Below, piece by piece: positions 6,579-34,343 of a DNA stretch of 51,289 nucleotides. The position numbers and the translations under genes were made by a program. Within the stretch, counting starts at the first letter, position 1; every line of letters begins with the position of its first letter. The notes below the pieces were generated by a model that made no database searches, was not told the DNA's origin, and saw nothing but the letters and a program-made list of their open reading frames with translations. Source of the DNA: an uncultured Planctomycetota bacterium (lineage in GTDB: Bacteria; Planctomycetota; J058); contig CAZMSZ010000005.1 of assembly GCA_964569055.1 (NCBI GenBank), forward strand, positions 1-51,289, read 5' to 3'.

Positions 6579-7319
6579 ATGGTCCTGTTCGTCCTCGAGC
6601 TGCTCGACCTCCTCGCCCTCGGCTGGTTGTTCCACCACCAGCGCGAGGAGGACCGCCGCCGGACCTACCGCAAGGAGGAGGTCCGGCGCGTCCTCGGCCG
6701 CCTGGCCGACTCGCTCGGCGGGGTCCACCTCAAGCCCTGGTTCCGCAAGCCGCGCGTGTTCGGCCACCACGAGGGGCGCGAGGTCGAGCTGATCTGGCTG
6801 GGCGCTGGCAAGGTCGAGGTGCGCTGCCGCGCGCGCCCCGAGCGCGCGCTCTCGGTCCGCCGCTGGCTGGGCTTGCTCGGCCGACCCGCGCGGGTCACCA
6901 CGCCCGGCGAATCCGACGAGCTGCGCGCCTGGGCCCTGCAGCTGACCGAGCGGTTCTGGGTGCAGCGGCTCGACGTCGCGGGCGGCGCGCTGGTCGCGCG
7001 GGCCGTCGTCGGCCTCGACGTGCTGCGCCTGCGCGCCCTGGCGGTCTCCATGGTCGAGCTCGCCTGGAGCGAGCCCGCCGCCTCGGCGGACGCCCCACCC
7101 GTGCGGGTCGCCTCGCGCGCCGACGCCGCCCCGAGCGCCACGGCCGAGCCGGCCCTGCGCTGCCCCTACTGCCACGACGAGCTCGGCCCCGCGGCCCCCG
7201 TCGTCCACTGCGCCGCCTGCGACGCCCCGCACCACCCGACCTGCTTCGAGGAGGGCGAGGGCTGCTCGATCGCGGGCTGCCAGGAGCGCAAGGCCCGCGG
7301 CCGCCGCGCGCGGGCGTGA
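6579..7319 (+). CDS. Membrane-anchored protein with C-terminal prokaryotic RING-like zinc finger (Prok-RING_1-like)
   Basis: N-terminal hydrophobic helix; CPYC-x12-CAAC-x3-HHxxC-x6-C-x4-C. Confidence 0.75.
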   Translation: MVLFVLELLDLLALGWLFHHQREEDRRRTYRKEEVRRVLGRLADSLGGVHLKPWFRKPRVFGHHEGREVELIWLGAGKVEVRCRARPERALSVRRWLGLLGRPARVTTPGESDELRAWALQLTERFWVQRLDVAGGALVARAVVGLDVLRLRALAVSMVELAWSEPAASADAPPVRVASRADAAPSATAEPALRCPYCHDELGPAAPVVHCAACDAPHHPTCFEEGEGCSIAGCQERKARGRRARA

Positions 7320-7969: not shown

Positions 7970-10267
<2,298 letters not shown>

Positions 10268-10349
10268 CTTCGTCGCTCCCGCCCGGAGGCCCGAGACCCT
10301 TGAGAGTATAGGAATTGCGCCGCGCTCGCACGACCCCGCCCCGGGCTGG

Positions 10350-10378
10350 TTGCAGGAGCGGCCCGACCCTGCCACGCT
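10350..10378 (+). promoter_or_regulatory. Possible sigma-70-type promoter of the Pup-like operon
   Basis: TTGCAG-N17-CACGCT, same architecture as 33764-33792. Confidence 0.3.
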
Positions 10379-10413
10379 AATCCTAGAGTCCGACGAATTT
10401 GGGTGAGGTCCCC

Positions 10414-10725
10414 ATGAGCGCCTCGAGCTTCGAGGTCCTGCTGCAGTCGTTCCCGAGCATGGCCGGCGCCCTGCAGGGACTGGCCGACCCGTCGAGCGCG
10501 GCGATCCCCGCCGGCGCGGGCCTGCTCCTGGTGCTCGCCGCCGCGGCGGCCCTGCGCGGCCGGGCCGCGCCCGTCTCCCCCGCCGCCGCCACCCCGCTGC
10601 CCTCGGCCGCGCTCGGCGACGCGGCCCCGGCCGCGAGCCCCGCCATGGAGCTGGCCGTGGGGGCGACGGAGGGCGCGGGCGCCGCCGCGCTGCTCGGGCT
10701 CACCACCGCGGGCGGCGGCGAGTAG
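10414..10725 (+). CDS. Pup-like small modifier protein with hydrophobic segment and C-terminal GGE
   Basis: 103 aa, third codon positions almost all G/C, SD gagg upstream, ends AAALLGLTTAGGGE, lies directly upstream of a PafA-type ligase. Confidence 0.7.
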   Translation: MSASSFEVLLQSFPSMAGALQGLADPSSAAIPAGAGLLLVLAAAAALRGRAAPVSPAAATPLPSAALGDAAPAASPAMELAVGATEGAGAAALLGLTTAGGGE

Positions 10726-10767
10726 CGGATCGCGACCGCCACGCCCGGCGAGCCCGTCCCCGCGCGC

Positions 10768-12795
10768 CTGCGACTGCTCGGCGTCGAGACCGAGTACGCG
10801 CTCGGCTTCGAGCCCGCCGCCGGCGAGGCCGGCCCCTCGCCCTCGCAGCGCCGTTTGTTCGGCGGCTACCTCACCGCGCTCCGCCGCCGGCTCCGCTCGG
10901 CCGAGGCGCTGTACTACAAGGAGGGCGACTTCCTCGAGGACGGCTCGCTGCTCCACTTCGAGCTCTCGCAGCTCGCCGACCCCGACGCGGGCCTGCTCGA
11001 GTGGGCCACCCCCGAGTGCCGCGGCCCGGTCGAGGCCGCCTGCGTGCTGCGGGCGCAGGAGGAGCTGCTGCGCGCGGCGAGCGACGACGTGGCGCGCGAG
11101 CTGGCGGCGGCGGGCCACGAGGGGCGCGCGTTCCTGCTCAAGAACAACCGCGACCGCGCCGGGAACGCCTACGGCTGCCACGAGTCGTACGACGCCCGCG
11201 AGCGCCCGGCCGGTCCGCGCCGGCTCCTGTTCGCGTGGATCCTGCACCCGCTCGTCGTCTCCCTGTGCGTGACCACGGCGGTGGCCGCGCTGAGCGTGCC
11301 CGTTGTCGTGCTGGCGGCCGGAGCCGTGCTCTACGCCGCCCTCGCGGTCTTGGGCGAGCTCCCGCTGCTCGGCGCGCTCCCGCGCGCGCTCGGCCGCGCG
11401 CTGGTCGGCGTGGCCAGCTACCTGGGCGAGCCGGGCCCCGGGCCGGGGCAGGGCGCCGCCGCGCGCGCGTTCCTCCTCCTGCTGCGCGGCCTGGCGGCGC
11501 TGTTCAGCCTCACCGCGCGCGAGGTGATCCTGGCCGGGCACGTCCCGGCGCTGGTCCCGTTCCTGGTCACCCGCCCGCTCCTGTGCGGGGCGGGCCACCT
11601 CACGCCGGACGGTCGCTACGAGCTGTCCCCGCGCGCGGCGATCACCGACCGGGTGGCGGCTGCGTTCATCTACGGGCGCACCCGCCCGCTGATCGAGCTC
11701 AAGGAGTTCTTCTTCCAGCAGCTCCTGCGCTGGGGCGCCGCGCGCAAGCGGCTGCAGCTCGTGTGCGGCGACGCCAACCGCGCCGAGCCGGCGGCGCTGC
11801 TCAAGCTCGGCACGACCTGCGCCGTGCTCGAGGCGATCGAGGCCGGCGCGCTCGACGAGCTCGCCGCCCGGCTCGAGCTGCTCGGCGGCCCGCTCGCCGC
11901 GTTCCGCGCCGCCTGCGCCGACCCGAGCGCGCGCGCGCCGGTCGCGCGCGACCGCGCCACCGGCGCGCTGCTCTCGGCGCACGACGTGCAGCGCCGCTAC
12001 CTCGAGGCGGTGTGGGCGCACGCCCGCGCCCGCCCCGACTGGCCGAGCGAGCTCACGGGCGCGCTCCGCCGCTGGGACGACGCCCTGCGCCGCCTGCGCG
12101 AGGAGCCGGCGACCCTCGCGCGCGACCTCGACTGGGCGATCAAGCTCGACCTGCTCCAGGCCACGCTCCAAGACGCGCTCCCGAACCGCCCCCTCGACGC
12201 CGCCTGGCGCGCGCTCCAGGCCTGGGGCCCGATCAACGCCCTCCTCGAGCGCCACGCCCCCAGCGCCCCGTTCCCGCCCGGCGAGCCCGCCCCCGCTGTC
12301 GCCGCCCGCCTCCGCGCCGCCCTCGGCCGAGGCCGCTACGCCCAGGCCGCCCGCGCCGCCCGCGCCGCGAACCTCGACTGGGCCGAGCTCCCCGCGGTGC
12401 GCGCCGCCTGGCTCCGGATGGCCGCCGCCGACCTCGGCTACCACGAGCTCTCCGCGCGAGGCGGCGCCTTCGAGGCCCTCGAAGCCGAGGGCCGGATCGC
12501 GCGCGCCCTCGACCCCGCCGCCGTGGCCCGCGCCCGCCAGCAGGCGCCCCACACCACCCGCGCCCGCCTACGCGGCCTCGCCGTCGCCCGCCGCGGCGCC
12601 CTCGGCGAACGCCGCGGCGGCGTGAAGGTCGGCTGGACCCGCGTGGAGCTCGGCGGCGCCGAGGAGCGCGCGACGTTCGCCCTCGACGACCCCGACCGCC
12701 ACGAGCACCCCGAGCTCGAGGCGGCGCTGGCGGCGGAGATCGAGGAGGTGGCGACTGTCGTGAGCGAGGACGAGCAGCGCGAGGACGCGGGTTGA
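10768..12795 (+). CDS. pafA: Pup-ligase (PafA-type, carboxylate-amine ligase fold) with transmembrane insert; start uncertain (CTG 10768, ATC 10729 or readthrough)
   Basis: RLLGVETEY, LLEWATPEC, KNNRDRAGNAYGCHESY, LVPFLVTRPLLCGAG, YELSPRA, TRPLI, RLQLVCGDAN, DLDWAIK, DLGYHEL, TTRARLRG; hydrophobic insert at about 11224-11530. Confidence 0.88.
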   Translation: MRLLGVETEYALGFEPAAGEAGPSPSQRRLFGGYLTALRRRLRSAEALYYKEGDFLEDGSLLHFELSQLADPDAGLLEWATPECRGPVEAACVLRAQEELLRAASDDVARELAAAGHEGRAFLLKNNRDRAGNAYGCHESYDARERPAGPRRLLFAWILHPLVVSLCVTTAVAALSVPVVVLAAGAVLYAALAVLGELPLLGALPRALGRALVGVASYLGEPGPGPGQGAAARAFLLLLRGLAALFSLTAREVILAGHVPALVPFLVTRPLLCGAGHLTPDGRYELSPRAAITDRVAAAFIYGRTRPLIELKEFFFQQLLRWGAARKRLQLVCGDANRAEPAALLKLGTTCAVLEAIEAGALDELAARLELLGGPLAAFRAACADPSARAPVARDRATGALLSAHDVQRRYLEAVWAHARARPDWPSELTGALRRWDDALRRLREEPATLARDLDWAIKLDLLQATLQDALPNRPLDAAWRALQAWGPINALLERHAPSAPFPPGEPAPAVAARLRAALGRGRYAQAARAARAANLDWAELPAVRAAWLRMAAADLGYHELSARGGAFEALEAEGRIARALDPAAVARARQQAPHTTRARLRGLAVARRGALGERRGGVKVGWTRVELGGAEERATFALDDPDRHEHPELEAALAAEIEEVATVVSEDEQREDAG

Positions 12796-12801
12796 AAGGA
12801 C

Positions 12802-12964
12802 CGGTGTCGGACACCGCGGCAGAGCTGTCGCGGGCAAGGCGGGCTCCCTGGCGTGAAAATCGACCGCCAACTGCGCCGAGAGCGCCAAGGAAGAGCTGTC
12901 GCTGCTGCGACGACCTCCTCGACCGCCACGTGCATGAAGGAGCTGTCGTCGAGCGACAGCTCCT
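12802..12964. repeat. Palindrome and repeat cluster in a convergent intergenic region
   Basis: cggtgtc-g-gacaccg (12802-16); (a/g)gagctgtcg at 12821, 12892 and 12939; hairpin aggagctgtcg-tcgag-cgacagctcct (12938-64). Confidence 0.6.
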
Positions 12965-13019
12965 CCTCGACACATCGCTCGCCCGAAGAGCCGCGGCCGA
13001 CGGTCCCGCTCTCTGCGAC

Positions 13020-13073
13020 TCCGAATCCGAATCCGAATCCGAATCCGAATCCGAGTCCGAATCCGAATCCGAG
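13020..13073. repeat. Hexamer tandem repeat (TCCGAR)9
   Basis: tccgaa x5, tccgag, tccgaa x2, tccgag. Confidence 0.95.
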
Positions 13074-13082
13074 TCGCCTCTC

Positions 13083-13985
13083 TCACCGCATCAGCGCGTC
13101 GATCGCCTCCAGCGTCGCGCGGGCGCCGCCCGGGAGCGAGATCCCGTTGGGGATCGAGGCGGGGATCCACGGCTCGCGGGGGTTGATCCGGATCAGGGTG
13201 TTCTCGCCGCGGCTGGCGATGCTCTCGCAGGTGGAGCGCACGGTGGGGATCGCCGTGCCGGCGCCCAGTTCGACCACCGCGATCCGGCGGCCCTCGAGGC
13301 CGCGGGTCCAGGCCCAGAAGCGGCTGGCCTGCTGGGACTGGCGGGCCTCGTTCCAGCCCCAGTCGCCGAACATCAGGATGTTCGGACGGCCGAGGCCGCC
13401 GCAGGCGGGGCAGCTCGGGAGGGGCTCGGCGGCGCGCATGGTGGTCTCGTCCACCTCGATCGGCTCGGGCGACGCGGGGTAGATCGGGTGGCCGCAGTCG
13501 GCGAGGCACTGGTCGTGGTCGATCGCGCCGTGGCACTCGTCGATCCGCTCGGGGTCGAAGCCGGCCCGGTGGAACTGGCCGTCCACGTTGGAGGTGAACA
13601 CGAAGGAGCCGCCCGCTCGGGCCTCGCCCCAGCGGCGCAGGATCGTGAACCCCTCGTGCGGGGTGGTCGCGCGGTACAGGTTGCGGCGGTGGCCGTAGAA
13701 GCCCCAGGCGAAGGCCGGGTCGTCGCGGAACCACTTCGGGTTCGCCATGGCGGCGAAGCCGACCCCGAGGTGGGCGTAGGGCGGATACGCCTTCCAGAAG
13801 CCCTGGTCGCCGCGGAAGTCGGGGAGGCCCGAGTCGACCCCCATGCCCGCGCCGGCGCCGACGAGCAGCGCGTCGGCGCTCGCGATCGCCTCGGCGGCGC
13901 GCGCGAGCGCCTCGGGGTCGAGCGGCCTGCGCCCGCTCGCTCGCGCCTCGAGCAGCCCCTCGTCCTCCGTGCGCTCCTCGCCCAT
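13083..13985 (-). CDS. Sir2-family NAD-dependent protein deacylase
   Basis: GAGAGMGVDSGLPDFRG, FTSNVDGQF, ECHGAI, zinc CxxxC...CPAC, RPNILMFGD, ELGAGTAIPTVR, IRINP. Confidence 0.95.
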   Translation of the reverse strand: MGEERTEDEGLLEARASGRRPLDPEALARAAEAIASADALLVGAGAGMGVDSGLPDFRGDQGFWKAYPPYAHLGVGFAAMANPKWFRDDPAFAWGFYGHRRNLYRATTPHEGFTILRRWGEARAGGSFVFTSNVDGQFHRAGFDPERIDECHGAIDHDQCLADCGHPIYPASPEPIEVDETTMRAAEPLPSCPACGGLGRPNILMFGDWGWNEARQSQQASRFWAWTRGLEGRRIAVVELGAGTAIPTVRSTCESIASRGENTLIRINPREPWIPASIPNGISLPGGARATLEAIDALMR

Positions 13986-33821: not shown

Positions 33822-34343
33822 CTGAAGAAGATCCTCTACATCCTGGCGAAGCTCCAGGAGCGCGACCTCGACTGGCTCGTCGCCAACGGCGCGCGCGAGC
33901 GGGTCCCGCCGCGCAAGGTGCTCATCACCGAGGGGCAGCCGCTCGAGGCCCTGTACGTGGTGCTCGAGGGCAGGCTGCGGGTGCGCGTCGGCGACACCGA
34001 GCTCGCCGAGCTCGGCCCCGGCGAGGTGGTGGGCGAGCTGTCGCTGCTCGACGCGCGGCCGCCCGCGGCCACGGTCGAGACCGGGGCCGAGGAGGCGCTC
34101 GTCCTCTCGGTACCCCGCTCGTTCCTGCAGCGCCGCCTCCTGACCGACGAGGGCTTCGCGGCGCGCTTCTATCACGCGGTCGGGTTGTTCCTCGCCGAGC
34201 GCCTCCGCGCCACCGTGCTCCGCCTCGGCTACGGCGACGGCGAGCGGGCGACGCTCGACGAGCTCGACGAGGAGCAGCTCGACCAGGCCACGCTCGCCGG
34301 CAGCCGCTTCGACTGGCTGCTGCAGCGGCTCCGCGGGCGCTGA
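33822..34343 (+). CDS. Stand-alone cyclic-nucleotide-binding protein (probable CTG start)
   Basis: (M)KKILYILAKLQERDLDWL...LITEG..LYVVLEG..LGPGEVVGELSLLDARPPAATV; GGAG upstream; in-frame TGA at 33765 and no ATG/GTG/TTG until 33918. Confidence 0.85.
   Translation: MKKILYILAKLQERDLDWLVANGARERVPPRKVLITEGQPLEALYVVLEGRLRVRVGDTELAELGPGEVVGELSLLDARPPAATVETGAEEALVLSVPRSFLQRRLLTDEGFAARFYHAVGLFLAERLRATVLRLGYGDGERATLDELDEEQLDQATLAGSRFDWLLQRLRGR

Follow-up and report, generated by a model that had tools for sequence, protein, structure and literature searches.

A Pup-type modifier–ligase gene pair in an uncultured planctomycete in which the ligase gene probably begins at a near-cognate CTG codon

The stretch of DNA analysed here (the window; 51,289 nt, G+C 75.6%) covers positions 1–51,289 of contig CAZMSZ010000005.1 in a metagenome-assembled Planctomycetota genome from soil (625 contigs; 92.7% complete), and it encodes a small modifier of the prokaryotic ubiquitin-like protein (Pup) type followed by a ligase of the PafA/Dop family. 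Modifier and ligase lie in one frame: the modifier runs from ATG 10414 to TAG 10723–10725, after which the frame is open from 10726 to the stop codon at 12793–12795. The codons that follow the TAG are CGG ATC ... CGC CTG(10768) CGA CTG(10774) CTC GGC, and the first ATG, GTG, or TTG in the ligase frame is TTG 10855. On comparison with related loci, the best reading is that the ligase is probably translated from a near-cognate start codon, CTG 10768 or CTG 10774, and that the in-frame TAG would be a coincidence of the 42-nt spacer. A preliminary description of this locus had noted the shared frame interrupted by the TAG alone, the position of the GVETEY motif upstream of the first ATG, GTG, or TTG, and the G or C at the end of all 14 linker codons; the first of these is confirmed by the coordinates of the open reading frames (ORFs), and the other two hold as well. 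The gene pair itself was already predicted in 2008, non-canonical starts are a known phenomenon, and the locus reveals no new recoding mechanism.

Start Codon of the Ligase Gene

The 5' end of the ligase gene was examined in 14 other distinct loci (L002–L010, L012, L014, and L024–L026). Scans of metagenome contigs and genome contigs added four and six loci, respectively; L018–L023 are the same contigs as six of the 14, L011 and L013 were left out, and L016, L017, and L027 do not include the 5' end. In 13 of the 14 loci an ATG or GTG lies 4–7 codons before the Gly codon of the motif that reads GVETEY in the window, and in ten of them the start lies exactly four codons before this Gly (GTG/ATG-Arg-Ile-Val-Gly), which is the position of CTG 10768. 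The proteins called for other homologs begin in the same region (1–7 residues before the Gly in 36 of 40), and 17 of the 40 begin M-R-I-x-G. L006 and L025, which start at GTG, have as their second codon the rare Arg codon CGA that comes after CTG 10768 in the window. The window thus has a CTG where its relatives have their start, the ligase frame offers no canonical codon from the TAG up to TTG 10855, and the proposal in the preliminary description of a non-AUG start at CTG 10768 gains support from the ten loci with ATG or GTG at exactly this position. CTG 10774 is an alternative start that is inseparable from CTG 10768. Being in frame is by itself a one-in-three event; the lack of a canonical ligase start where relatives have one is, as judged from the aligned loci, above chance.

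Apart from the window, a canonical ligase start is missing in one locus only, that of a congener whose ligase protein is 68% identical; the scans of metagenome and genome contigs yielded no further member of the genus. In the congener the codon four before the Gly is CTC and the codon two before it is ATT, the only near-cognate codon close to the motif. ATT is used for none of the nine Ile codons in the rest of this ligase gene and for 4 of 60 in the locus, and its occurrence two codons before the Gly is suggestive of a start.

Automatic annotation places the ligase start at TTG 10855 in the window, where the database protein P0001 begins, and even further into the gene in the congener. TTG 10855 is an internal Leu codon, because the same position is CTG both in a co-occurring haplotype and in the congener. 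The annotated starts remove the invariant first β-strand, which the enzyme needs to judge by its invariant residues and the modelled fold. The main practical consequence is that the database entries for this genus are truncated and would look inactive.

The sequence itself was checked against Logan contigs from four runs of one study (possibly including the source sample), placed on 10300–11300. Four contig pieces span the junction (X1, 10300–11290; X2, 10300–10835; X3, 10661–11300; X4, 10300–11100), and TAG 10723–10725, CTG 10768, and CTG 10774 show no listed difference in any of the four runs (region 10723–10776, depth approximately 6–9). Three runs contain a second haplotype, with a 9-nt insertion (CCAGCTCCG) after 10749 and the substitutions 10757 T>C, 10836 C>G, 10854 T>C, and 10855 T>C. 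Read in the ligase frame, 10757 T>C changes Val to Ala (GTC>GCC), and the change TT>CC at 10854–10855 is synonymous, converting TTG 10855 to CTG.

Several observations weigh against initiation at CTG 10768 or CTG 10774. The CTC at the homologous codon of the congener means that the two species cannot share exactly one start, and the congener contig has only about 3× coverage according to its title. No Shine–Dalgarno (SD)-like motif precedes CTG 10768, CTG 10774, or the ATT of the congener; for CTG 10768 this agrees with the preliminary description, which had found no good SD there. The linker of the window haplotype looks coding under a codon log-odds model trained on the source genome (14 of 14 third codon positions G or C; log-odds +6.9 in the ligase frame), unlike the linkers of orthologs, which score −1.6 to −38 in eight of nine cases. 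The best-scoring coding extension above TTG 10855 reaches ATC 10729, not a CTG, with a score of 27.2, and extension scores above 20 occur in only 24 of 3,560 ORFs. The 9-nt difference between the haplotypes preserves the frame. Across the genome, an SD-like motif is no more frequent before upstream in-frame CTG codons (198 of 1,349) than before CTC codons (352 of 2,291).

Other genes give a mixed picture of CTG initiation in this organism. Elsewhere in the window, another gene shows CTG (33822) at the position where all seven homologs, one of them a paralog in the source genome, have ATG or GTG; most of these homologs have a G-rich run upstream, the codon log-odds signal has its boundary precisely at this CTG (score 41.8), and the first canonical start, GTG 33918, would cut 32 codons from the gene. 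The preliminary description had called this a probable CTG start, as the homologs and the log-odds boundary bear out, and the pattern makes CTG initiation plausible in this organism. By eye, the product resembles a cyclic-nucleotide-binding-type protein. Genome-wide, an SD-like motif precedes the first ATG in 616 of 1,291 cases, the first GTG in 587 of 1,804, and the first TTG in 93 of 465; given the lack of any excess at CTG, starts of this kind would be rare exceptions rather than a habit, and wide use of CTG starts in the lineage was dropped as a candidate explanation. Of the top 50 log-odds boundaries, seven fall on CTG and five on CTC. Several of these seven CTG boundaries have a GGAG/GAGG-like motif upstream, as seen by eye, and a short list of other ORFs on contigs of the source genome (G000; e.g., C173, C179, and C111) look coding well upstream of their first ATG, GTG, or TTG.

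Taken as two separate genes, modifier and ligase would form a small operon. The modifier starts at ATG behind a good ribosome-binding site and stops at TAG, and the ligase, predicted to be membrane-anchored, would have lost the GTG/ATG start of its family and be translated from CTG 10768 or CTG 10774, giving an N-terminus like M-R-L-L-G-V-E-T-E-Y. Scanning 10200–13100 for sigma-70-like promoters and intrinsic terminators gave neither. If CTG is decoded as initiator, output of the ligase would be expected to be low, by analogy with Escherichia coli, in which CUG, AUU, AUC, and AUA initiate at 1–2% of the level of AUG according to the accessible part of a preprint (bioRxiv 10.1101/063800). In related loci, an SD-like GGAG/GAGG lies 5–8 nt before the start in 10 of 11 modifier genes, and an SD-like motif occurs in only 3 of 13 ligase orthologs with a canonical start, at 9–12 nt. 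The SD is thus strong for the modifier and weak for the ligase across the family, and scarcity of the ligase next to plentiful modifier appears to be a trait of the family as a whole. The CTG, together with this weak ribosome-binding site, would keep the ligase scarce relative to the modifier, and the near-cognate start would deepen this scarcity in the genus of the window.

Alternatives to a Near-Cognate Start at CTG

The principal rival, which we regard as unlikely, is re-initiation after the TAG at ATC 10729 (4 nt downstream) or ACG 10741, giving a ligase with a Pro/Ala-rich extension of 9–13 residues. It would account for the coding-like linker, for the best-scoring extension ending at ATC 10729, and for a haplotype indel that is a multiple of three; 4 of the 40 homolog proteins are also called with 12–33 extra N-terminal residues, and AUC is among the codons for which the accessible part of bioRxiv 10.1101/063800 gives 1–2% of AUG in E. 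coli. However, the codons inserted in the second haplotype (CCA GCT CCG) are strongly disfavored in coding DNA (log-odds −6.35), and with GTC>GCC (−0.85) the linker of that haplotype scores only about −0.3, so that the linker is rated as probably untranslated. The linker of the congener is 1 nt longer than that of the window and has no ATC, ATT, or CTG upstream of its ATT, and orthologs start 4–7 codons before the Gly. A four-codon match upstream of the start, P-A-R-L, in both the window and the congener was considered as a sign of coding constraint and ruled out, because the 1-nt difference in linker length makes shared translation across it impossible. In another locus (L007, genome G010), modifier and ligase are separated by 250 nt (1248–1497) that look strongly coding in the ligase frame (log-odds +30.3; 71 of 83 third positions G or C), which sets this spacer apart from those of all other orthologs; an N-terminal extension, a further ORF, or a repeat could account for it.

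Slightly less likely still is that the ligase is a pseudogene whose start was lost before the two species diverged, with nil or negligible translation. Both species lack a canonical start and an SD for it, and the ratio of nonsynonymous to synonymous substitution rates (dN/dS) is 0.51 for the ligase against 0.32 for the neighboring activator gene; at a third-position G+C content (GC3) near 0.98, dS is probably underestimated for both. Against such decay, at 32% protein divergence the frames of approximately 690 codons are unbroken in both species, with GC3 at 0.98 and all invariant residues of the family kept. The ligase is also modelled with confidence (predicted local distance difference test, pLDDT, 94), the modifier gene is retained with its GGGE end intact, and the haplotype difference at 10854–10855 is synonymous.

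Amber readthrough at TAG 10723, by which a modifier–ligase fusion of approximately 790 residues would be the only or main source of active ligase, is very unlikely. The locus resembles cases of programmed readthrough, or of pyrrolysine or suppressor decoding of UAG, in having an in-frame TAG between two functional coding regions, followed by codons ending in G or C; modifier and ligase share one frame in either haplotype, the linker is coding-like in the window haplotype, and the modelled C-terminus of the modifier lies beside the first strand of the ligase, where a fusion in cis looks sterically possible. Programmed readthrough should be recognizable by conservation of both frame and stop identity in orthologs, and neither is conserved. 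Among 12 distinct loci, the modifier and ligase frames differ by 0 in three, by +1 in eight, and by +2 in one; the three in-frame loci are the window, L024, which has a GTG ligase start, and L026, in which a second stop directly follows the first. The distance from the modifier stop to the Gly codon varies between 46 and 262 nt. In the congener the TAG is out of the ligase frame, which is closed by a TGA 26 codons upstream. The stop of the modifier is TAG in nine loci, TGA in two, and TAA in one; nine of 12 exceeds the genome-wide share of TAG, but TAG is a common stop here, ending 1,112 of 3,560 coding-like ORFs (31%) in the source genome, 578 of them as TAGC, its commonest context and that found at 10723. 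The readthrough fusion advanced in the preliminary description is therefore not supported, the frame being random (3 of 12) and the stops mixed. That description had itself named the pattern that would speak against readthrough, namely ATG or GTG in orthologs at the CTG position and a random modifier frame, and this is the pattern observed. It had also proposed a search for pyl genes or a suppressor tRNA: none of the 70 tRNAs predicted by ARAGORN in the 92.7% complete genome has a CUA, UUA, or UCA anticodon, and the best match to PylS in the source genome reaches 29 bits against a cut-off of 178. The predicted RNA fold of 10690–10810 is unremarkable (z −0.34). Outside the window, on contig C230 of the source genome (1127–1220), ARAGORN also predicts a 94-nt tRNA of unassigned identity whose anticodon, cgcg, has four bases.

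It is similarly improbable that the TAG is slightly leaky, yielding a trace of modifier–linker–ligase fusion beside a separately initiated ligase, with the GGGE reaching the active-site strand in cis. The comparisons among loci argue against this as a conserved mechanism; for this one species it keeps its small probability because both haplotypes maintain the frame and one linker looks coding. If real, such a fusion would be a self-priming or self-marking membrane-bound Pup ligase. The least probable alternative is an assembly or sequencing error at the ligase start codon or modifier stop, also raised in the preliminary description: the metagenome-assembled genome is fragmented and the congener contig thinly covered, but all four runs, second haplotype included, agree at 10723–10725 and 10768–10776, and the congener, assembled independently, equally lacks a canonical ligase start.

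The Modifier and Ligase as a Pup-Type Pair

The ligase scores 238.4 bits (E 2e-70) for the Pfam family PF03136 (Pup_ligase), whose cut-off is 25, and the alignment includes the profile from its position 1, which falls on the Arg codon at 10771 (residue 16 when translation starts at 10726). An AlphaFold2 (AF2) model built from 39 homologs is of high confidence (pLDDT 94.2; predicted template modelling score, pTM, 0.92), and Foldseek relates it to the structures of Dop (4b0r; E 2.7e-23, target-normalized template modelling (TM) score 0.83) and of PafA–Pup (4bjr; E 2.2e-22, target-normalized TM 0.78). The scores against the NCBIfam equivalog models are 193.3 bits for PafA (TIGR03686; cut-off 551.3) and 129 bits for Dop (TIGR03688; cut-off 492.3). 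The protein, present as one copy in the source genome, is a member of the wider PafA/Dop family and an equivalog of neither PafA nor Dop. The first strand spans residues 3–16 of the model, and includes the G-x-E-x-E glutamates, which we take to bind metal and ATP. When the first 89 residues alone were compared with PDB sequences by phmmer, no PafA or Dop was found, only chance-level matches (E approximately 0.9). The hydrophobic insertion (Table 1) has hydropathy peaks at residues 177–195 and 230–248, and the model places long helices at 150–196, 203–220, and 230–253.

In 12 distinct loci the ligase is immediately preceded by a small ORF ending in GGGE and a stop; L94, G100–G102, and E103 (window numbering) are invariant among 11 aligned sequences, and the modifier frame of the window has a GC3 of 0.99. 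None of the 11 modifier sequences matches the Pfam Pup model, with hits considered up to E 10. As a small protein with a C-terminal G-[EQ] encoded beside a ligase, the modifier has the features by which Pup was recognized in the accessible part of PMC2588565. No modifier-like ORF was found upstream of the ligase in L008 or L014. In L012 (G040), an ORF ending in ...ASDGE-TAG lies just upstream of the ligase ATG, in the ligase frame and 14 codons before the motif Gly, and may be a divergent modifier. The hydrophobic residues 29–47 of the window modifier (10498–10554) have a Kyte–Doolittle value of 2.18; modifiers of about 100 residues with a hydrophobic segment occur in the window and in L018, L019, L022, L026, and L007, and modifiers of 50–55 residues without one in L020, L021, L025, and L009. 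It would be unusual for a Pup-type tag to have a membrane anchor of its own.

In a model of the complex, modifier residues 92–103 lie against ligase strand 9–16, with contacts that include residues 9 and 11–16. The interaction prediction score from aligned errors (ipSAE) is 0.81, compared with 0.02 for the best of three controls; 58 of 80 solved complexes attain the mark applied to this score, as do 2 of 110 mismatched pairs. At least 79% of contacts are common to the runs, and the pLDDT of the partner is at least 73. Because complexes of PafA with Pup and Dop with Pup have already been solved (4bjr and 7oxy), this result may show likeness only. The modifier tail as modelled docks against the very strand that is lost in annotation, and its terminal Glu would be the substrate for ATP-dependent ligation to Lys, the activity predicted for a Pup ligase. 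Since the modifier ends in Glu, a deamidation step is presumably not needed. The Pfam and Foldseek matches of the ligase, the conservation of the modifier, and the model of the complex together support the Pup-type pair proposed in the preliminary description.

Table 1. Features of the modifier–ligase locus and of other genes in the window, with positions on the 51,289-nt stretch.
Feature	Position	Strand	Remarks
246-aa protein, borderline Prok-RING_1 (prokaryotic RING finger)	6579–7316	+	Scores 29.1 bits, equal to the Pfam cut-off; ~3 kb from the modifier–ligase pair
Divergent sigma-54-dependent activator (TPR, GAF, AAA+, HTH)	7970–10375	−	Pfam Sigma54_activat, E 7e-66
Shine–Dalgarno-like GAGG	10405–10408	+	5 nt 5' of the modifier ATG
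Pup-type modifier gene	10414–10725	+	103 aa; hydrophobic residues 29–47; C-terminus ...LLGLTTAGGGE; stop TAG
Modifier TAG stop, in the ligase frame	10723–10725	+	Same in four of four runs
42-nt linker, most likely untranslated	10726–10767	+	Contains near-cognate ATC 10729 and ACG 10741
CTG, proposed ligase start	10768–10770	+	Aligns with the start codon (GTG/ATG) of 10 of the 14 other loci
PafA/Dop-family (Pup ligase-type) gene	10768–12795	+	675 aa + stop; GC3 0.98
GVETEY, part of the first β-strand	10780–10797	+	G5, E7, and E9 invariant in 39 aligned homologs
TTG, gene-caller start, internal Leu	10855–10857	+	CTG in the second haplotype and the congener
Hydrophobic helical insertion, predicted membrane anchor	11215–11526	+	Ligase residues ~150–253
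Sir2-family gene	13086–13985	−	Next gene beyond the 3' end of the ligase; opposite strand
Second gene with CTG at the start position of homologs	33822–34343	+	173 aa; G-rich SD-like run upstream

Comparison With Known Systems

A planctomycete Pup with a C-terminal G-[EQ] was already predicted by Iyer, Burroughs, and Aravind (2008; PMC2588565), who also described, in the accessible part of that paper, a Pup ligase with a four-helix membrane insertion, unlinked to proteasome genes, in planctomycetes and deltaproteobacteria. The pair in the window resembles this system in that a small protein with a C-terminal G-[EQ] adjoins a single PafA/Dop homolog with a hydrophobic insertion after the core strands, and in lacking linkage to proteasome genes: no proteasome or Mpa gene was found within approximately 4 kb upstream or 6 kb downstream of the pair. 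It differs from what the accessible part describes in that the ligase of this genus has no canonical start codon, and in that the modifier has 103 residues and its own hydrophobic segment, compared with Pups of 50–90 residues. In the literature searched, which yielded nothing relevant on UBact, only genomic predictions stand behind this ubiquitin-like system. Single-copy planctomycete homologs have been placed as an outgroup to both PafA and Dop (PMC7947786, in its accessible part).

With the actinobacterial PafA/Dop and Pup (4b0t, 4bjr, 4b0r, and 7oxy), the pair shares the fold (target-normalized TM 0.73–0.84; Foldseek E down to 2.7e-23), the N-terminal G-x-E-x-E strand, and the docking of the modifier C-terminus as modelled. 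In contrast to the actinobacterial enzymes, the ligase falls below the equivalog cut-offs, occurs once per genome, and carries an insertion of approximately 105 residues and a C-terminal extension; unlike actinobacterial Pup, the modifier of the window has no Pfam Pup match.

Near-cognate starts are used to set low expression elsewhere, for example the GTC start of sigR in Streptomyces (accessible part of PMC5472188). The ligase gene is comparable to such cases, and to the near-cognate codons assayed in E. coli (bioRxiv 10.1101/063800, as far as its accessible part goes), in having a near-cognate codon at the canonical start of its relatives, with low output expected. It differs from known near-cognate starts in being predicted from sequence, in lacking an SD, and in the disagreement between congeners (CTG at −4 and −2 versus ATT at −2). 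A design common to the family is suggested, pairing a modifier gene that has a strong ribosome-binding site with a ligase gene whose site is weak, and one genus appears to go further by using near-cognate start codons. Initiation at CTG 10768 or CTG 10774 would make this locus a testable case of start-codon choice setting the ratio of enzyme to substrate in a bacterial ubiquitin-like system.

Neighboring Genes

Upstream and divergent from the modifier gene is that for the sigma-54-dependent activator, preceded in the window by the gene for the borderline RING-finger protein, and the Sir2-family gene lies beyond the ligase (Table 1). The activator is syntenic in the congener, where it is 81% identical.

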